Shown here in pieces: positions 1,803 to 48,725 of a stretch of DNA of 64,000 nt; the stretch's first letter is position 1; each line of letters begins with the position of its first letter. The DNA is from Acidimicrobiales bacterium. Its GTDB lineage: Bacteria; Actinomycetota; Acidimicrobiia; Acidimicrobiales; SHLQ01. The position numbers were made by a program, and so were the translations under genes. The notes under the pieces were generated by a model, which did not search any database, had not been told where the DNA came from, and worked only from the letters and a program-made list of their open reading frames with translations. Where the stretch lies: positions 78 through 64,077 of the forward strand of contig JAHDDK010000017.1 of the NCBI GenBank assembly GCA_020629375.1, written 5' to 3'.

Positions 1803-2807
1803 TCAAGTGAGGGTCGGGAGTCGGAGGCTCGAGTTTGCTCCATGATCGAGGGCTGCCGGACCATCCGACCCGAAGCGGTGGAAGCCGGCTGCCGCGACCA
1901 TCGCCGCGTTGTCGGTACACATCGACCGGCTCGGGATGAACGCCTTCAGCCCATCCTCGGCAGCGACGTCGAGTGCTCGCTGCCGTAGCGATGAGTTGGC
2001 GGCCACTCCCCCGGCCAAGCACAGACCCCGGGCACCGGTCTCGGCCATGGCGCGACGAGCCTTCGTGATCAACACGTCGACCACTGCTTCCTGAAACGAC
2101 GCCGCGACGTCGGCCGTGTCGACATCCGGGTTCTTGCGCACATGGTTGACGACCGACGTCTTCAGACCCGAGAACGAGAAGTCGTAACCGTCGTTCTTCA
2201 TGCCCCGCGGGAACGCGATCGCCTGTGGATCGCCCTCGGCTGCAAGCGCATCGATGGCTGGGCCACCTGGGTAGCCGAGCCCGAGGTAGCGGGCGACCTT
2301 GTCATACGCCTCGCCCGCCGCGTCGTCGAGGGTTTGGCCGAGCAAGCGGTACTGCCCGTGTCCCTCCATGAGGACGAGCATCGTGTGCCCACCGGAGACG
2401 AGCAGCGTGATGAGCGGCAACTCGAGGTCCTGATCCTCGAGAAACGCCGAGTACAGGTGCGCTTCGAGGTGATTGACCGCCACGAACGGCCGATCCCAAA
2501 CCAGGGCAAGTGACTTGGCCGTGCTGACGCCGATGAGGAGCGACCCGATCAGGCCGGGCCCGACCGTCGACGCCACCGCCGTGAGGTCGCCGGGTTCGAC
2601 CCCCGCCTCGACCATCGCTTGGGCAACGACGGGCACCATCATCTCGACGTGTGCCCGACTGGCGACCTCGGGGACGACACCGCCGTAGCGGGCATGAATG
2701 TCGATCTGGCTCGACACGACCGACGAACGCACGTCGTGCCCGTCGGCGACGACGGCCGCAGCCGTCTCATCGCAGCTCGTTTCGATTCCGAGGATCAGCT
2801 CCGGCAC
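1803..2807 (-). CDS. tsaD: tRNA N6-adenosine threonylcarbamoyltransferase TsaD
   Basis: ILGIETSCDETAAAVV...HLEAH...GGVAAN motifs are present. The track ORF 1803..3563 was trimmed to GTG at 2805-2807 because the upstream 250 aa are Arg/Pro-rich and overlap rimI. Confidence 0.9.
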   Translation of the reverse strand: MPELILGIETSCDETAAAVVADGHDVRSSVVSSQIDIHARYGGVVPEVASRAHVEMMVPVVAQAMVEAGVEPGDLTAVASTVGPGLIGSLLIGVSTAKSLALVWDRPFVAVNHLEAHLYSAFLEDQDLELPLITLLVSGGHTMLVLMEGHGQYRLLGQTLDDAAGEAYDKVARYLGLGYPGGPAIDALAAEGDPQAIAFPRGMKNDGYDFSFSGLKTSVVNHVRKNPDVDTADVAASFQEAVVDVLITKARRAMAETGARGLCLAGGVAANSSLRQRALDVAAEDGLKAFIPSRSMCTDNAAMVAAAGFHRFGSDGPAALDHGANSSLRLPTLT

Positions 2808-3349
2808 GAAAACACTCCTCCGGCCAGTTCGGTCGACAGTTCGACAGGGTCGGGCCACTCCATCGCGTCGAGTCTGGCGGGCCAGCCGTCGGGTGAGTCG
2901 TCGATGGGCGGCGACCACAAGATCAGCGCGTCGTCGCCGGTGTCGGCGTAGTAGCCGGGGCGTACACCGACGGGTGCAAGCCCGAACGATCGGTACAGGC
3001 CGAGCGCCGCATCGTTGCCGGCGCGGACTTCGAGGGTCAGACCCCGCATCCCCGCCTCGCACGCCACCCGGGCGAGCGCCAACATGATGGTTCGGCCGTG
3101 CCCATGGCCCTGTGCGGCCGGATCGACTGCGATAGTCGACACGTGGGCTTCGTCGGCCAGGAACAACACGCCGCCATGGCCGATCACCCGACCTCGCTCG
3201 ACCACGACGACATGGGTTCGGTCGGGTCCGGTGATCTGATCGATCGTCATCTGCCGCGACCATGCGGTCGGATACACCTGCCGGTCGATGCGTTGAATGT
3301 CGTTGACGTCTTGGAGCTCCGCGTTGCGCAACAACAGCTTCGGGTTCAT
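2795..3349 (-). CDS. rimI: ribosomal-protein-alanine N-acetyltransferase RimI (GNAT)
   Basis: 184 aa with GNAT core AVDPAAQGHGHGRTIM. It sits between tsaB and tsaD as in other actinobacteria. Confidence 0.85.
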   Translation of the reverse strand: MNPKLLLRNAELQDVNDIQRIDRQVYPTAWSRQMTIDQITGPDRTHVVVVERGRVIGHGGVLFLADEAHVSTIAVDPAAQGHGHGRTIMLALARVACEAGMRGLTLEVRAGNDAALGLYRSFGLAPVGVRPGYYADTGDDALILWSPPIDDSPDGWPARLDAMEWPDPVELSTELAGGVFSCRS

Positions 3350-29014: not shown

Positions 29015-29161
29015 GGGGTCAGACCCCCACCACTCGACCATCGCCAGTTGGATGTCGGGATTTCGGGGTCAGACCCCGGGATCTCGGGATCTCGGGTCTG
29101 ACCCCAAGCATTGTTCTCTCGCTGCGGAAGAAGCACAGCGGGTCAGTGGGGGTCAGACCCC
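29015..29161. repeat. REP-like cluster, 4 copies of GGGGTCWGACCCC
   Basis: Copies at 29015, 29065, 29094 and 29148. The last copy overlaps the final codons (GSDPH-stop) of the GH1 gene. Confidence 0.85.
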
Positions 29162-31568: not shown

Positions 31569-32467
31569 GGCAGGGGTACTCCTTCGCTCGCTTCGACAAT
31601 GTCGTAGCAATCGTTGCGGTCGAGATGGACATCGGCAGCTGCGATCGCAGCCGTGAGCCTCTCGGGCGTTTGGGTGCCAAGCAGCGCCACGGGCCGCGAG
31701 GGGTTAGCGAGAACGAACGCCGTGGCGATCGTCGCTCGGTCTGTGCCTTCCCGTTCGGCGAGTCGGTCGACGACCTCGAGAAGTTGGGGTCTGACCCCCT
31801 CGCCGCTGAAAAGACGTCCTCCCGCAAGCGGCGACCACGCGAGAGGGACCACGCCGTCACGCATCGAGCGATCGAACGTGCCGTCGCGCATCGGTTGAAG
31901 TTGAACCACGGAGAACTCGGGCTGGGTCGACACAACCGGAGCCGACAGGTGATGGGCGAGCGCGTCGTATTGATCGACAGTGAAGTTGGAGATACCCACC
32001 ATGCCGATCTTGCCGGCTGCAATCAGGCCGTCGAGGGTGTCGGCAATCTGCGCCGGATGGGCGAACATGTCCGGCCGATGAATCTGCCAGAGATCGATGT
32101 GGTCGACTCCGAGCCGCGACAGTGAGGCGTCAACTGCAGCAACGAGGTACTCCGAGCTGGAGTCATAGGGCAGCGGCGGCATGATTCCGCCCTTGGTGGC
32201 CAGCACCATGCGGTCACGGAGCCCGGGAGCATCCGCAAGCACCTGGCCGAGTCGCTCTTCGTTTTGGCCAAAACCGGTACCGCCCCAGTCCAAGCCGTAC
32301 ACATCGGCCGTATCGATGAGGTTCATTCCCACATCGAGTGCGGTTTCGATGAGCCTGTGGTTCGCAGCTGGGTCCTCAGCCGTGAGACGCCAAGTCCCAT
32401 ATCCGAGCGCTCCAACATCAGGTCCGTCGGTTCCGAGCCGACGAGGAGTCATGTCGACGAGAGTCAT
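31565..32467 (-). CDS. aldo/keto reductase
   Basis: GYGTWRL...DTADVYG...LATKGG motifs. Confidence 0.9.
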   Translation of the reverse strand: MTLVDMTPRRLGTDGPDVGALGYGTWRLTAEDPAANHRLIETALDVGMNLIDTADVYGLDWGGTGFGQNEERLGQVLADAPGLRDRMVLATKGGIMPPLPYDSSSEYLVAAVDASLSRLGVDHIDLWQIHRPDMFAHPAQIADTLDGLIAAGKIGMVGISNFTVDQYDALAHHLSAPVVSTQPEFSVVQLQPMRDGTFDRSMRDGVVPLAWSPLAGGRLFSGEGVRPQLLEVVDRLAEREGTDRATIATAFVLANPSRPVALLGTQTPERLTAAIAAADVHLDRNDCYDIVEASEGVPLP

Positions 32468-32535: not shown

Positions 32536-33624
32536 ATGAACCATCGCCACATTCGCTACGGGATCATCGGTACCGGGATGATGGGCGTCGAGCACATCTT
32601 GAACATCCTCGCACTCGAGGACACCAGTGTTGTGGCCATCGCCGATCCCGATGCCGGCTCAAGAGACCACGGGCTCGAGGCGGCGGGGGGCGAGGCGCGG
32701 GTTTACGAGGACTATCACGATCTCCTCGCCGACGAGGATGTGGACGCCGTGGTCGTTGTGACCCCGAACTTCACCCATCTCGAGGTCATGCGAGACGTGC
32801 TTGCAACCGGCAAGCACGTGCTCTGCGAGAAGCCCCTTTGCACGACCGCAGCCGATTGCCAAGCTCTAGTCGAGATGGCCGAGGGGTACGAAGGCGTGGT
32901 CTGGGTCGGCCTCGAATACCGGTACATGCCTGCGGTTCAAGCGCTCATCGCTGAGGTTCATGCCGGCACGGTGGGTGACGTCAAGATGGTGGCGATCCGC
33001 GAACATCGCTTCCCGTTCCTCGTCAAGGTGGGCGACTGGAACCGATTCTCGTCGAACACGGGTGGCACGTTGGTGGAGAAGACGTGTCACTACTTCGATC
33101 TGATGAATCTGATCGTCGGTCGACGGCCAGTCCAGGTGTACGCCTCGGGCGCGCAGGATGTGAACCATCTAGACGAGTCGTACGGGGGTCAGACCCCGGA
33201 CATCCTCGACAATGCGTTCGTGGTCGTGGACTACGAAGGCGGGGCTCGGGCGATGCTCGACCTTTGCATGTTTGCTGAGGCCACCAAGGATCAAGAGGAG
33301 CTGTCCGTTGTGGGCAACCTCGGCAAGGTCGACGCTCGGATTCCGACTTCCGAACTGCACGTCGGCATTCGCTCCGGGAAGGGCATCGCGGACATCGGCC
33401 AGGTCGACACGCGTGCGATCACGAACGACGCCATCAAGCACGAAGGCCTCCACCACGGTTCGAGCTATCTCGAGCACGTCGATTTCGCCGCTGCCATCCG
33501 GGGTCAGACCCCAGCCCTAGTGACGCTCGAGGACGGCCTGTGGTCAGTGGCCATGGGCGAGGCCGCACACCGTTCTATCCAGGAGAACCGTCCCGTCCGC
33601 CTCACCGAAATCCTGGGCATCTGA
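32536..33624 (+). CDS. Gfo/Idh/MocA family oxidoreductase
   Basis: IRYGIIGTGMMG Rossmann motif and EKP motif (VLCEKPL). Confidence 0.9.
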   Translation: MNHRHIRYGIIGTGMMGVEHILNILALEDTSVVAIADPDAGSRDHGLEAAGGEARVYEDYHDLLADEDVDAVVVVTPNFTHLEVMRDVLATGKHVLCEKPLCTTAADCQALVEMAEGYEGVVWVGLEYRYMPAVQALIAEVHAGTVGDVKMVAIREHRFPFLVKVGDWNRFSSNTGGTLVEKTCHYFDLMNLIVGRRPVQVYASGAQDVNHLDESYGGQTPDILDNAFVVVDYEGGARAMLDLCMFAEATKDQEELSVVGNLGKVDARIPTSELHVGIRSGKGIADIGQVDTRAITNDAIKHEGLHHGSSYLEHVDFAAAIRGQTPALVTLEDGLWSVAMGEAAHRSIQENRPVRLTEILGI

Positions 33625-33696
33625 GCTTCGTTCACTCCCGAACGGGAGGAACAGGAGATCTGACCAACGAACTTGGAGGACGGCACGAACCGGTCT

Positions 33697-33814
33697 GGGG
33701 TCAGACCCTAACGGACCCCAACCGAGCGGTCGATCGTTCATCGAAACTGCGCCCGACCGGGGTCTGACCCCTGCATCTCCGAACTGCGCCCGATCGGGGT
33801 CTGACCCCTGCATC
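33697..33814. repeat. REP-like cluster, 3 copies, including a ~36-bp tandem duplication
   Basis: Copies at 33697, 33759 and 33797. Units 33743-33777 and 33781-33814 are near-identical (GAACTGCGCCCGAYCGGGGTCTGACCCCTGCATC). Confidence 0.85.
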
Positions 33815-33981
33815 GACCGCGGGCATTTCGCCAGGTTGGGATAACGAGCCGTGTGTACCCGACTAGACAGACACGTCCGCAATGGGCATCCTCGGAGGAG
33901 ATTCGTTATCGCCGTCGTCTGACGTGCCTTCTCGCTGGCTTCGGCTGGCCTTTCACATACGTGCACGTGAGGACACAAACG

Positions 33982-34722
33982 ATGAGACCGCTTCGAATCG
34001 ACTATGACGGCGCCTGGCATCACGCGATGAATCGCGGAGCCGCCCATCAGCCGATCTTTCGGGACGACGTCGACCGGCACACGTTCCTAGGGTTCGTCCA
34101 GAAAGCCGTCGAAAACACCGGTATACGGATCCATGCGTACTGCCTGATGGGTAATCACTTCCACCTTCTTGTCGAATCCGTGGACAGCTCGCTCAGCGCC
34201 GCGATGAAGATCATCGGTCAGGAGTACACACAGTGGTTCAACCGACGCCACGGCCGAGACGGCGCACTCTTCCGCGGCCGATTCACGTCCAAGATTGTGG
34301 AAGACGATGGGCATCGGCGGACGATCGTCGACTACATCCACGCCAACCCCTTCAGCGATCAGACAGCTCGATCCGGATTCTGCTGGTCCAGCTTCGATGC
34401 CTTGAAAGGGCTCATTCGCCCGCCGAGCTTCCTCACAACGAGCGTGGTCGGCCGGATCTTCAGACCCAAGAAGCGCGCTACTCGAGATCGTCGAAACCCG
34501 TGTTCGCCCCACAGAGGACAACACCGACGACCTCGTCCTTCGCAGGCCGGTACATGCCCGCTCGCAGCACAGCCACCGTCGTGGCCACCGCAGGCTCGAC
34601 GAGAACTCGAAAGGTTGTCCAGAGCCAACGACGCGCCTCGAGGACGACCTCATCCCGAACCGTCAGGCCCGCAGCGTCGACCCGGGACAGCGCCTCCCAA
34701 GCTAGCTCACCGATCTGTGTAG
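33982..34722 (+). CDS. REP-associated tyrosine transposase (RAYT; IS200-like Y1/HUH transposase, COG1943 type)
   Basis: MRPLRIDYDGAWHHAMNRG N-terminus, HUH motif NHFHLLV and catalytic-Tyr motif VDYIHANP. The last ~80 codons are Arg/Pro-rich and antisense to the next gene, so the real C-terminus is uncertain. Confidence 0.75.
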   Translation: MRPLRIDYDGAWHHAMNRGAAHQPIFRDDVDRHTFLGFVQKAVENTGIRIHAYCLMGNHFHLLVESVDSSLSAAMKIIGQEYTQWFNRRHGRDGALFRGRFTSKIVEDDGHRRTIVDYIHANPFSDQTARSGFCWSSFDALKGLIRPPSFLTTSVVGRIFRPKKRATRDRRNPCSPHRGQHRRPRPSQAGTCPLAAQPPSWPPQARRELERLSRANDAPRGRPHPEPSGPQRRPGTAPPKLAHRSV

Positions 34723-35461
34723 CCCCGAGCGCATCCGCAGTGACTCCGGAGACTTCCACGTCCACGGGGTGTCCGGCTCGTACGGCCGACGCGTACGCGC
34801 TGGTACGTTCGCCTTCGCATGCGATGATCGCTGGCCCCTTCGTTGACCCGTCACCGTACGAGGCGATAGCGGCACCGCCAGCGAGTCCACCGCCGCCGCA
34901 GGCGTACAAGATGGTGTCCAGCTCACGGCTCGACCTCTCAACCTGGTCGACAAACTCTGTGGTGACTGTTGCAGCACCGGCCATGACGCTCGGATGGTTA
35001 TACGCATGGATGTTTGTCGCCTCAAACCGCTCGACGTGTTCGAGACATGCCTCTAGGGACTCTGAGTAGATCGAGCCAACCTGACGAACGTCAGCACCGT
35101 AGCTGCGGAGCCGATCGACCTTCGACGGGTTCGAGATCGTTGGGACGAAGATTGTCGGGGTCAGACCCCGCTGCTTGGCCGCCCACGCCACCGCAGCCCC
35201 ATGATTTCCACCCGATGCCGCTGCGACCCCGCCCGGGCCGATCTCATTCGTTGCGAGGAAGTTCGTAGCGCCACGAGCCTTGAACGACCCCGAGTGCTGT
35301 AGGTGCTCGAGCTTGAACACGACCGGTGCGCCTGCTTCGAGCCCGAGCTCGTCCCGGCTGACTTCGAGCAGTGGGGTGGATCGGACGACGTTGCGGAGCC
35401 GCAAGCTTGCAGCTCGGACTTCGGCGATTGTCGGAAGAGTCATAATGGATGATTCAACCAT
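34478..35461 (-). CDS. PLP-dependent threonine/serine dehydratase family protein
   Basis: PLP-lysine motif HSGSFKARGA and glycine loop GGGGLAGG. Confidence 0.85.
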   Translation of the reverse strand: MVESSIMTLPTIAEVRAASLRLRNVVRSTPLLEVSRDELGLEAGAPVVFKLEHLQHSGSFKARGATNFLATNEIGPGGVAAASGGNHGAAVAWAAKQRGLTPTIFVPTISNPSKVDRLRSYGADVRQVGSIYSESLEACLEHVERFEATNIHAYNHPSVMAGAATVTTEFVDQVERSSRELDTILYACGGGGLAGGAAIASYGDGSTKGPAIIACEGERTSAYASAVRAGHPVDVEVSGVTADALGATQIGELAWEALSRVDAAGLTVRDEVVLEARRWLWTTFRVLVEPAVATTVAVLRAGMYRPAKDEVVGVVLCGANTGFDDLE

Positions 35462-35530
35462 CCCCTATGCGGGCAAGGGGCGAACCGCAGAAATCGTGCC
35501 CATCGATCGCCGGAAGGCACGCCACAGACC

Positions 35531-35652
35531 GCTCGAACGAGGGTCTGACCCCCGTTCGTTCCGTTCGCTGACTGGCCTCGGTTGCGAGAGCTCGCTGACC
35601 GTGACCGCACGGCTTGGAGGGGTCTGACCCCGTGCAACGAGGGTCTGACCCC
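35531..35652. repeat. REP-like cluster, 3 copies plus one degenerate copy
   Basis: Copies at 35531, 35619 and 35641. A degenerate GGTCAGAC follows at about 35668. Confidence 0.8.
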
Positions 35653-35705
35653 GGGGTAGTCGCCCCGAGGTCAGACTCGACGGATTCTCGAAGCGCGGAA
35701 CTCGT

Positions 35706-45678: not shown

Positions 45679-45723
45679 GGGGTCTGACCCCTACCGAACG
45701 TTCGTTAGGCGGGGTCAGACCCC
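45679..45723. repeat. REPIN-like inverted pair GGGGTCTGACCCC-N19-GGGGTCAGACCCC
   Basis: The spacer TACCGAACGTTCGTTAGGC contains the palindrome CGAACGTTCG. The element lies between convergent genes. Confidence 0.85.
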
Positions 45724-47530: not shown

Positions 47531-48580
47531 ATGGACGTCGGCATCTTCATTCCCATCGGCAACAACGGCTGGATGATGTCGAAGACGGCACCGCAGTACA
47601 TGCCGAGCTTCGAACTCAACAAGGAGACGGCGATTGAAGCCGAGAAGCAGGGCTTCGAGTTCTTGCTCTCGATGGTCAAACTCCGCGGGTTCGGCGGGGA
47701 CACCGAGTTCTGGGATCACAACCTCGAGTCGTTCACCCTGATGGCTGGCCTTGCGGCAGCGACGAACGACATTGGCTTGTACGCGTCGGTGGCGCTCCCG
47801 ACGATGGAACCGGCGATGGTCGCTCGAATGGCGTCGACGATCGACGACATCAGCGATGGACGTTTTGGCATCAACATCGTGTCGGGCTGGAATCAGATCG
47901 AGTACAGCCAGATGGGCGTCTGGCCCGGCGACTGGTACTTCGAGAAGCGCTACGACTACGCGACCGAATACGTGACGATCATGCAAGACCTGTGGTCGAC
48001 CGGTGCGAGCGACTTCAAAGGTGAGTACTTCCAGATGGACGACTGTCGTCTCTCACCGCCTCCCCGGGACAACAAGGTTCCGCTGGTCTGTGCCGGGCAG
48101 TCCGACCGGGGCATGGAGTTCTGCGCGACGTACGGCGACTACCAGTTCATCATCGGCACGAGCGACCTCGACGTTGTCCGAGCTGATGCCGCACGCCTGA
48201 TGGAAGCCGCCGAGAAGACTGGCCGCGACGTTGGGGTCTACGTGCTCTTCCAGATGACGATGGGCGAGACCGACGAAGAAGCCGAGGCCAAGTGGCAGTC
48301 GTACAAGGACGGCGCCGACCTGGAGGCGATCAAGTTCTTGATTGGCGCGGCCGAGATGGACACGGCTGGCGCCACGGCCGACAAGATCGCCGAGATGCAA
48401 CAGGCGTTCAACCTCAACATCGGCGCCATCGTCGGCAGCCACGCCACAATCGCTGCACGCCTCGACGAGGTCGCAGAGATCCCGGGCGTCAAGGGAACGA
48501 TGTGTGTTTTCGATGACTACCCCGTCGCCACGAAAGAGTTCGGCGAGAAGGTCATGCCCCTCATGCAATCCCGCAAGTGA
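47531..48580 (+). CDS. rutA: pyrimidine monooxygenase RutA-like LLM flavin monooxygenase
   Basis: The sequence appears alignable along its length with my recollection of E. coli RutA. Shared blocks: IFIPIGNNGW..S..APQYMP.FELNK and SM.KLRGFGG.TEFWDHNLESFTLMAGLAA. Confidence 0.8.
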   Translation: MDVGIFIPIGNNGWMMSKTAPQYMPSFELNKETAIEAEKQGFEFLLSMVKLRGFGGDTEFWDHNLESFTLMAGLAAATNDIGLYASVALPTMEPAMVARMASTIDDISDGRFGINIVSGWNQIEYSQMGVWPGDWYFEKRYDYATEYVTIMQDLWSTGASDFKGEYFQMDDCRLSPPPRDNKVPLVCAGQSDRGMEFCATYGDYQFIIGTSDLDVVRADAARLMEAAEKTGRDVGVYVLFQMTMGETDEEAEAKWQSYKDGADLEAIKFLIGAAEMDTAGATADKIAEMQQAFNLNIGAIVGSHATIAARLDEVAEIPGVKGTMCVFDDYPVATKEFGEKVMPLMQSRK

Positions 48581-48725
48581 GGGTCTGACCCCAACCTAAC
48601 GAACGTTCGGTAAGTCGGGGTCAGACCCCAACCGAACGCGCGTTAGGCAGGGTCAGACCCCAACCGAACGCGCGCTAGGCAGGGTCAGACCCCAACGAAC
48701 GGCGGGTCGGGAGGGGCCTGACCCC
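48581..48725. repeat. REP-like tandem cluster, 4 copies plus 1 variant
   Basis: Copies at 48581, 48617, 48650 and 48682, with variant GGGGCCTGACCCC at 48713. Spacers are about 20 nt and related to one another (AACCGAACGCGCGTTAGGCA twice). Confidence 0.85.

Follow-up and report, generated by a model that had tools for sequence, protein, structure and literature searches.

The subject of this analysis is a gene for a Y1/HUH transposase that lies beside a cluster of short palindromes in a 64-kb stretch of DNA from an Acidimicrobiales bacterium (contig JAHDDK010000017.1, assembly GCA_020629375.1), referred to below as the window. The locus is probably what remains of a TIRtron, in which a gene for a TIR-associated tyrosine transposase (TIRYT) is accompanied by its flanking repeats; here the set at the 5' side is left, and the 13-base palindrome that recurs in the window would be the repeat of this element, multiplied in a lineage of the Acidimicrobiia. 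By its motifs and its relatives, the window gene is best described as a truncated derivative of the TIRYT type, which is related to the RAYTs yet is not a canonical RAYT. The kind of element is known, namely a TIRtron with a family of repeated, self-complementary terminal inverted repeats (TIRs). What is new is the host phylum, the density of the repeat, the retention of the main locus in synteny and, most of all, the presence inside genes of copies that are length-neutral.

The transposase gene and its catalytic core

The open reading frame (ORF) at positions 33982-34722 of the forward strand had been described in a first-pass annotation as carrying RAYT-type hallmarks, and all of these were verified by translation: the start MRPLRIDYDGAWHHAMNRG, the HUH motif NHFHLLV and the tyrosine motif VDYIHANP. 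The HUH residues are H59-F60-H61 (34156-34164), and the catalytic tyrosine is Y118 within YIHANP (34333-34350). The profile search that had been proposed at the same time gave 41.7 bits to the Pfam family Y1_Tnp (PF01797), as compared to a gathering score of 23, with residues 13-121 aligned to model positions 7-120 of 121. All columns that are invariant among 13 homologues are retained in the window protein. The main features of the gene and of its downstream neighbor are as follows, with the strand given where a feature has one.

33982-34464, forward strand: Y1/HUH core of the TIRYT-type transposase gene, amino acids (aa) 1-161, delimited by the Pfam Y1_Tnp match, homologue alignments, a G+C content of 0.76 at third codon positions, and AlphaFold2 (AF2) and Foldseek results
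aa 135-137 of the window protein, forward strand: WSS serine motif, part of the Y1/HUH core
34465-34722, forward strand: non-homologous read-through tail of 85 codons, not a genuine domain, judged by the lack of any convincing homologue alignment, the G+C pattern and the low pLDDT
34478-35461, reverse strand: gene for a pyridoxal phosphate (PLP)-dependent enzyme (PALP; Pfam PALP 4.5e-60), with its C-terminal tail shortened at the junction with the transposase ORF

The AF2 model of the window protein has a pLDDT above 90 over aa 10-160. A Foldseek search with the modeled core placed Escherichia coli TnpAREP (4ER8) at the top (E 1.7e-7), followed by the TnpA proteins of ISDra2 and IS608, to about 1e-4, and the core aligns with the 165-aa E. 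coli TnpAREP over 163 columns. The closest proteins in a collection of 5.8 billion are 56-57% identical to the window protein. Searches with homologue queries (tblastn) recovered this single copy of the Y1 gene, and no second one, in the window. No sigma-70 promoters or intrinsic terminators were found in a scan of 33500-34800, and no RNA genes were identified in the window with Rfam at gathering thresholds or in a tRNA scan. When the 5' leaders of the genes in the window and in three related loci (L002, L003 and L004) were aligned, conservation was limited to the palindromes.

Family assignment

The tyrosine motif of the window protein is Y---NP, the signature of class 2 TnpAY1 proteins, which are TnpAREP-like, whereas class 1 proteins of the IS200 type have Y---Q (PMC6006769). 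In an NCBIfam scan at E<=0.01, REP_Tyr_transpos (NF047646, an equivalog model) was the only family listed and no IS200 model appeared; the score of 51 bits is under the equivalog cut-off of 80. A family profile searched against the PDB identified 4ER8 TnpAREP as the sole transposase by sequence (E 8e-4), and the profile was required for this, as a single-sequence phmmer search of the PDB gave no transposase match. Taken by these tools, a Y1/HUH homologue of RAYT-like class 2, and not of the IS200 type, is supported. The earlier identification as a RAYT thus stands as far as the class is concerned, but not in the sense of a canonical RAYT. There is no tnpB, and the neighboring genes encode an oxidoreductase and the PLP-dependent enzyme.

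Within class 2, the defining character of subclass 2.1.2 is a long protein that ends in Bac_DnaA_C or HTH_23/28 (Quentin et al., 2018, PMC6006769), and subclass 2.1 was equated by the same authors with the TIRYTs of Di Nocera et al. (2013). The TIRYT genes have terminal inverted repeats as flanks, which mostly share the sequence GGGGWSAS and are not GTAG-type repetitive extragenic palindromes (REPs) (PMC3733652). Around the window palindromes, we found no GT[AG]G foot and no other conserved flank outside the 13-mer.

Truncation of the gene

Homology to any relative is confined to codons 1-161 (33982-34464). The G+C contents at codon positions 1/2/3 are 0.59/0.44/0.76 in codons 1 to about 160, which is a coding-type pattern, and 0.74/0.71/0.49 in the last 85 or so codons, which is a non-coding pattern. 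The tail of the ORF is the antisense of the 3' end of the PALP gene, and its predicted structure has a pLDDT below 50 at aa 164-198 and 218-236 and is confident nowhere. In an identical 9.3-kb Logan contig (L001), the ORF was left uncalled by the contig's gene caller.

The homologues are 185-340 aa long; past aa 161 or thereabouts they carry a conserved helix (Y..FV), and many of them end in Bac_DnaA_C (PF08299) or HTH_23 (PF13384). No remnant of this helix or HTH extension was detected in any frame or at any place in the window with four full-length homologues as tblastn queries. The downstream (3') repeat of the window copy is likewise absent, the ORF running directly into the PALP gene. The PALP protein ends in GANTGFDDLE in the window, as compared to GANTTFDHFDDPQGLEKTS in the closest relative, L164, and the truncation junction falls within 34465-34480. 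From this junction sequence we infer that one deletion shortened both the Y1 gene, at its 3' side, and PALP, by its last codons, and also took away the repeat downstream of the Y1 gene. On the evidence of the alignments, the window gene is a 3'-truncated remnant, and the 246-aa ORF is not an intact transposase. Some residual catalytic activity of the truncated core is conceivable, since the core has about the length of the entire 165-aa E. coli TnpAREP.

The palindrome as terminal repeat of the gene family

Three copies of GGGGTCWGACCCC are located 174-285 nucleotides (nt) upstream of the ATG, close to where the first-pass annotation had placed them.

33697-33709: upstream repeat copy 1, GGGGTCAGACCCT, with one mismatch and with GGGGTCAG (GGGGWSAS) in forward orientation, 285 nt before the ATG
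33745-33777 and 33782-33814: two 33-nt direct repeats with a period of 37, each with an exact GGGGTCTGACCCC (33759-33771 and 33796-33808)

The copies at 33759 and 33796 have GGGGTCAG on the other strand. Folded as single-stranded DNA, the region 33745-33814 pairs copy 1 with copy 2 (-29.7 kcal/mol, z -3.3). The distance from the upstream copies to the start is 74-290 nt in the closest relatives.

Seen within the window, this adjacency is weak evidence, because palindromes occur in 7 of the 29 intergenic gaps, in each case next to a gene 3' end, and in none of the seven divergent 5'/5' gaps; the counts come from a crude gene map based on G+C frame, and some empty gaps may be missed genes. We initially accepted the adjacency as evidence for a link and dropped it in view of these counts. 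It is the comparison across loci that ties the gene to the palindrome.

The self-complementary 13-mer GGGGTCAGACCCC opens with GGGGTCAG, which matches GGGGWSAS. We scanned one genome per species, which gave 75 usable homologue loci. A forward GGGGWSAS was found within 300 nt upstream of the gene in 39 of them, most commonly at -51 to -54 or at about -81, and an inverted GGGGWSAS within 300 nt downstream in 30, with both sides occupied in 26; the expectation is about 0.04 per locus. An independent search for inverted flanks was also run, and the cross-phylum consensus of the repeat is GGGGTCAGGTCTTG. Judged from these loci, the 13-base palindrome is the terminal repeat of a TIRYT clade, of which the first eight nucleotides, GGGGTCAG, are shared across phyla.

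The exact core GGGTCWGACCC is present on both sides of the gene in six loci (L002, L003, L004, L026, L045 and L068) and, with one mismatch allowed, in L168, L169 and L170. In total, the core palindrome brackets homologous genes in at least 10 other Acidimicrobiia loci. The statement that no inverted terminal repeats are visible, on the other hand, is correct for the window copy only; the relatives have them, and the 3' repeat appears to have been deleted here. In L026, a complete Acidimicrobiales chromosome, and in L068, the two bracketing copies are the sole copies within 16-20 kb, and the association of gene and palindrome is therefore not a by-product of abundance. L006, a metagenome-assembled genome of the Ilumatobacteraceae, has inverted repeats of the sequence CGGTGTCAGACACCTGTTGCAGCT on the flanks of its Y1 gene (2226-3122). 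Their palindromic core, GGTGTCAGACACC, departs from GGGGTCAGACCCC by two changes that compensate each other, which suggests that self-complementarity has been maintained.

At the 3' ends of the Y1 genes in L026 and L045, the match, when extended in frame as far as the next stop codon (which is no annotated gene end), contains ...RGLTP... and ...RGSDP..., respectively, close to its end. The downstream terminal repeat may thus overlap the 3' end of the gene in these two loci.

History of the window copy and the conserved main locus

Going by the names of its nearest relatives, the source organism is an Acidimicrobiales/Ilumatobacteraceae-like bacterium. The order of genes around the transposase (glycosidase, luciferase-like, aldo-keto reductase, oxidoreductase on the forward strand, PALP on the reverse strand, permeases) is shared by the window, L164 (GCA_020629635.1) and L084, with the oxidoreductases of the latter two being 84% and 74% identical to that of the window. 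In L164 and L084, the convergent stop codons of the oxidoreductase and PALP genes have an overlap of 25 nt or a separation of 7 nt, and a Y1 gene is missing. Because these two syntenic relatives have empty sites, the first of the following segments is a derived insertion.

33625-34477: lineage-specific inserted segment of 853 nt with the repeat cluster and the truncated gene
35540-35652: second palindrome cluster, with three copies, within the 244-nt gap 35462-35705

The gap that contains the second cluster is only 9-14 nt long in the syntenic relatives. Across the syntenic 10 kb or so there are 11 palindromes in the window, as compared to two in L164, both of which are shared. The genes of the relatives are very tightly packed, and the extra DNA in both enlarged gaps of the window is all palindrome-bearing.

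Full-length proteins of the same subclade (P0001, P0007, P0009 and P0011) are encoded at one locus in four samples, in the order adh(-) / Y1(+) / ftsX-ftsE-prfB-secA(-). These four proteins are 46-66% identical to each other and 52-57% identical to the window protein. Each of the adh/ftsX genes is flanked by the repeat, and the surrounding DNA contains 0.7-1.5 matches to the core per kb (11-mer, at most one mismatch). A sister sample (L002) has a full-length gene in a third genomic context. The fixed adh/ftsX locus resembles, by analogy, the behavior of domesticated, vertically inherited RAYTs, and the copy in the window appears to be a decaying, secondary one. The view of the window gene as the obvious candidate for mobilizing the palindrome is accordingly doubtful, as it is a truncated, derived insertion that is absent from two syntenic relatives.

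Two further observations concern the gene ends in this region. A separate hairpin, GTTCACTCCCGAACGGGAGGAAC, is located at 33632-33656, just past the stop codon of the oxidoreductase gene; it has no T-run and was negative in the terminator scan, and it may be the terminator of that gene. Also, a palindrome covers the last codons and the stop codon of a glycoside hydrolase gene both in the window (29149-29161) and in L164 (6558-6570), with different C-terminal residues; gene ends may have been remodeled by the repeat.

The palindrome family in intergenic DNA

The window has a G+C content of 64% and contains 34 matches to the palindrome with at most one mismatch, as compared to 0.15 expected and a maximum of two in dinucleotide shuffles. 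About 20 of the copies are located in the approximately 11% of the window that is non-coding, clustered at gene 3' ends; the division into coding and non-coding copies depends on the crude gene map. The intergenic copies form inverted pairs, arrays and direct doublets, an example of the last being the two exact copies ahead of the Y1 gene.

45679-45723: inverted, REPIN-like pair of palindromes with a 19-nt palindromic spacer, between convergent genes; hairpin of about 50 nt as single-stranded DNA (-21.9 kcal/mol, z -5.3)
48580-48725: five-copy array with a period of 32, alternating with the imperfect palindrome CCGAACG(CG)CGTTAGG

A CGAACG/CGTTCG companion is also found beside the copies at 35540 and 45679-45723, with seven occurrences near palindromes as compared to 2.1 expected, and it defines a sub-family of the palindromes. 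No sequence beyond the 13-mer is common to all window copies, and a single copy forms only a weak hairpin (-4 kcal/mol, z -0.95). The alignments with syntenic relatives show that the intergenic clusters expanded by insertion.

Palindromes inside genes

About 13 of the 34 copies are intragenic, eight of them exact, and the palindrome is not purely extragenic, as these copies lie within genes without insertion. Most are in the frame xGG-GGT-C[AT]G-ACC-CCx, which codes for [RGW]-G-[QL]-T-P. No exact copy was present in 30 trials of whole-codon shuffling or in 30 trials of synonymous-codon shuffling in which the protein was kept. The four copies that can be compared with orthologues are listed here; others in the window are located at 3033, 10619, 11614, 15912, 22271, 27880 and 51848.

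33185-33197: exact palindrome in the Gfo/Idh/MocA oxidoreductase gene, coding for GGQTP; no indel, the L164 sequence being GAC GGT CAG GCA TCG
33500-33512: exact palindrome in the same oxidoreductase gene, coding for RGQTP, within the conserved C-terminal AIR....VTLEDG
35157-35169: exact palindrome in the PALP gene, coding for RGLTP; no indel relative to the orthologues
31786-31798: exact palindrome in the aldo-keto reductase gene, coding for GVRP with the rare codon AGA; identical 13-mer in L164

All four alignments are gap-free. Three of the four copies are new in the lineage of the window, with two to five amino-acid changes within five codons and conserved neighbors. The first oxidoreductase copy lies in SYGGQTPDIL, as compared to VYDGQASDIL in L164 and TYDGARSDIL in L084, and the second in AIRGQTPALVT, as compared to AIRNATPAKVT and AIRKGIEAKVT in the relatives; the PALP copy lies in KQRGLTPTIFVP, as compared to RERSVRANIFVP and RRAGHAATIFVP. 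The AGA codon in the aldo-keto reductase copy accounts for 3% of the arginine codons. The orthologous 13-mers in L164 match 8, 7 and 3 of the 13 positions (counted by hand), and there is no consistent pattern of precursor near-matches.

Published intragenic REPs are insertions that encode 20-30 extra residues (PMC3733652). We considered in-frame insertions of this type as the source of the intragenic copies and rejected them, as the four comparable copies are gap-free. The alignments show that these copies arose in a length-neutral manner, and since they did not result from insertion, a second process is required. They are the main unexplained feature of the system, and no transposition mechanism accounts for them.

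A near-palindrome is located at the same prfB codons in three adh/ftsX-type loci (L168 at 13166, L169 at 13106 and L170 at 10732), where it reads ATG GGG TCA GAC CTC with the rare codon TCA; L003 differs in sequence at this position. The GGQ motif of release factor 2 was considered as the cause of the prfB copy and rejected, as the copy is about 140 codons upstream of it. Further copies were identified in secA and ftsX of the same loci, and a single DUF1996 gene of L169 has five. Essential genes are not spared by the palindromes.

In the coding part of the window, exact and one-mismatch copies are in excess over the codon shuffles, and near-matches with exactly three mismatches number 6, as compared to means of 15-17 in the shuffles. 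This deficit could reflect conversion of near-matches or be an artefact of the shuffling.

Proposed mechanism

The TIRYT, a relative of E. coli TnpAREP, would act on single-stranded DNA as a Y1/HUH nuclease and strand-transferase. The repeat of the clade, which begins with GGGGTCAG, has probably become the self-complementary GGGGTCAGACCCC in this Acidimicrobiia lineage. The two empty sites show that the window copy was inserted between convergent genes once its lineage had separated from the closest relatives sampled, and a later deletion would have removed its 3' part, including the C-terminal helix/HTH extension and the 3' repeat, and trimmed the end of PALP. Left behind would be a catalytic core of about the length of an E. 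coli RAYT, fused to some 85 meaningless codons.

On the model of IS608 TnpA and E. coli TnpAREP, the enzymes of the clade would bind the repeat on single-stranded DNA, cleave next to it via a 5'-phosphotyrosine intermediate and rejoin the ends. Short repeat-bearing units could in this way be dispersed to intergenic sites at gene 3' ends, where pairs and arrays would build up. The active enzyme in the genome is more likely to be a full-length paralogue than the truncated copy, with a gene of the adh/ftsX type as one candidate. Mobilization of the palindrome by the enzyme is inferred from these distant relatives.

For the copies inside genes, we tentatively suggest, as a rather unlikely extension, that the TIRYT repeat spreads in two ways, by insertion of units between genes and, inside genes, by a template-like overwriting that affects about 13 nt and leaves the length unchanged. 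The overwriting may, for example, be a nick-induced short-patch conversion or a repair bias at the recognition site of the enzyme. If so, the palindrome would act like a HIP1-type motif of cyanobacteria, but with an identifiable, dedicated HUH enzyme, and this would provide a testable mechanism for writing hyper-abundant exact motifs into coding sequence.

Weighing of the alternatives

Several points weigh against the interpretation as a TIRtron remnant. Neither the 3' repeat nor the C-terminal extension, both of which define the family, is present in the window copy, and the placement of the gene in subclass 2.1 is based on architecture, motifs and the flanking repeat, and not on the hidden Markov models or the tree of the original authors. 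The adjacency of gene and palindrome in the window alone is statistically uninformative. Quentin et al. (2018, PMC6006769) reported no REP-like sequences near subclass 2.1 genes, and the link between enzyme and repeat is for this reason one of genomic association only. The literature searched contains no TIRYT biochemistry, and binding and cleavage of the repeat are judged from distant relatives. L164 has eight palindromes in 21 kb and no Y1 gene in those 21 kb. Finally, the 13 or so gap-free intragenic patches are explained neither by cut-and-paste nor by copy-in transposition.

Among the alternatives, the one that fares best, although we regard it as improbable, is that the gene is a canonical and functional RAYT, the single-copy domesticated mobilizer of a REP/REPIN family. 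The intact HUH and tyrosine motifs, the retention of the invariant columns, the best structural match to E. coli TnpAREP and a conserved part of 161 aa, close to the entire 165-aa E. coli enzyme, are all compatible with this, as are the single copy in 64 kb and the abundant palindromes at gene 3' ends with their REPIN- and BIME-like inverted pairs and arrays. A canonical RAYT would not, however, be expected from a REP_Tyr_transpos score of 51 bits against a cut-off of 80, from a 13-mer with neither a GT[AG]G foot nor a conserved flank, or from a clade that fits TIRYT/subclass 2.1. Nor does a domesticated mobilizer agree with a gene that is truncated, has no downstream repeat and was inserted recently (it is missing from two syntenic relatives, and the full-length relatives are at a different, conserved locus), or with a third of the palindromes being intragenic.

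Slightly less probable again is an incidental adjacency, with the palindrome being a motif maintained by the host that accumulates independently of the Y1 gene; candidates for such a motif are a terminator, a structural element, a signal for protein binding or of the uptake type, and the outcome of a methylation and repair bias such as has been proposed for HIP1. The invariable position at gene 3' ends in 7 of 29 gaps would suit a motif of this kind, and so would the coding copies, about 13 in number, which are substitutions and not insertions, the conservation at the nucleotide level with rare codons included, and the palindromes of L164, in which the 21 kb seen include no Y1 gene. The distribution across genomes speaks against it. 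The sole copies in 16-20 kb of L026 and L068 bracket the Y1 gene, and the first eight nucleotides are the flanking repeat of the clade in many phyla that have no palindrome family. Moreover, every locus of the closest subclade that we have seen is palindrome-rich, whereas loci of more distant relatives, fetched via the oxidoreductase, a housekeeping-type gene, gave just three matches in 602 kb.

An ordinary autonomous insertion sequence of the IS200/IS605 type, or a fragment of one, is highly improbable: the Pfam name of Y1_Tnp ("Transposase IS200 like"), the insertion relative to syntenic genomes and the different genomic contexts of the copies in the window, L002 and L004 would agree with it, but the tyrosine motif is Y---NP and not the Y---Q of class 1, no IS200 model was matched in NCBIfam at E<=0.01, there is neither tnpB (the neighbors being the oxidoreductase and PLP-enzyme genes) nor a subterminal hairpin of the left-end/right-end (LE/RE) type, the flanks in the relatives are inverted repeats, and the copies are 44-68% identical rather than near-identical, with four samples sharing one syntenic locus.

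Implications

Among RAYT-like proteins, the TIRYTs (subclass 2.1) form the second largest group. To what is known of them, the present lineage adds a repeat whose GGGGWSAS end has turned into a perfect palindrome, at about one copy per 1-2 kb, and a full-length gene that is fixed at one locus in divergent genomes together with decaying secondary copies. It is a natural system for asking whether TIRYTs mobilize their repeats, and it extends biology of the RAYT/REP type to the Actinomycetota. No REP or TIR mechanism described so far accounts for the length-neutral copies inside essential and conserved genes; should these copies depend on the enzyme, they would form a bridge between REP-type elements and iterated motifs of the HIP type. 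For annotation, the 246-aa ORF should not be read as an intact transposase.

Comparison with known systems

The window locus is most similar to the TIRYT/TIRtron elements (PMC3733652), with which it shares a Y1/HUH protein with the Y---NP and serine motifs, relatives that are long and have Bac_DnaA_C or HTH_23 C-termini, and, in these relatives, genes bracketed by inverted repeats with the outer end GGGGWSAS (here GGGGTCAG). Some published TIRs are also self-complementary, moderately abundant and present as dimers and clusters, such as those of Stenotrophomonas maltophilia K279a ORF1152 (PMC3733652). Unlike these elements, the window copy has neither a 3' repeat nor a C-terminal extension. Its host, a member of the Acidimicrobiia, is also different: Actinobacteria are absent from the 2013 TIRYT study (PMC3733652) and Actinobacteridae were found with subclass 1.1 only (PMC6006769). 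Further differences are a repeat density of 0.5-1.5 per kb in the Acidimicrobiia loci seen, a perfect 13-bp palindrome without further conserved flank, the many copies that are length-neutral coding patches, and full-length orthologues that are kept at one syntenic locus.

With RAYT/TnpAREP systems (YafM of E. coli, 4ER8; the RAYTs of Pseudomonas), the window core has the fold and the catalytic motifs in common. As in these systems, the gene of the relatives lies between inverted copies of the repeat that it presumably mobilizes and appears to be vertically inherited at a fixed locus, and the repeats are located at gene 3' ends in hairpin-capable inverted pairs and arrays. The NCBIfam equivalog cut-off is, however, not reached by the window protein, a GT[AG]G guide tetranucleotide is missing, the hairpin of a single repeat is very weak (-4 kcal/mol), the intragenic copies are without insertion, and the window copy has repeats upstream only and not on both sides as in a REPtron. 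The TnpA proteins of IS200/IS605 elements (IS608, ISDra2) have the same HUH/Y1 fold and presumably the same chemistry of single-strand cleavage and ligation; they differ in having Y---Q where the window protein has Y---NP, and the window gene, in contrast to such elements, has no tnpB, is not multi-copy in the DNA seen and belongs to a family with inverted-repeat flanks instead of LE/RE hairpins.

Like HIP1 (PMC5861425, PMC4390886) and the uptake sequences (DUS/USS), the palindrome is a short exact motif that occurs in huge excess within as well as outside coding DNA, that imposes itself on codons and amino acids, and whose nucleotide sequence as such is conserved. In contrast to HIP1, it is 13 bp rather than 8 bp long, it is strongly enriched in intergenic clusters, and it is the terminal repeat of the gene for a dedicated HUH enzyme.

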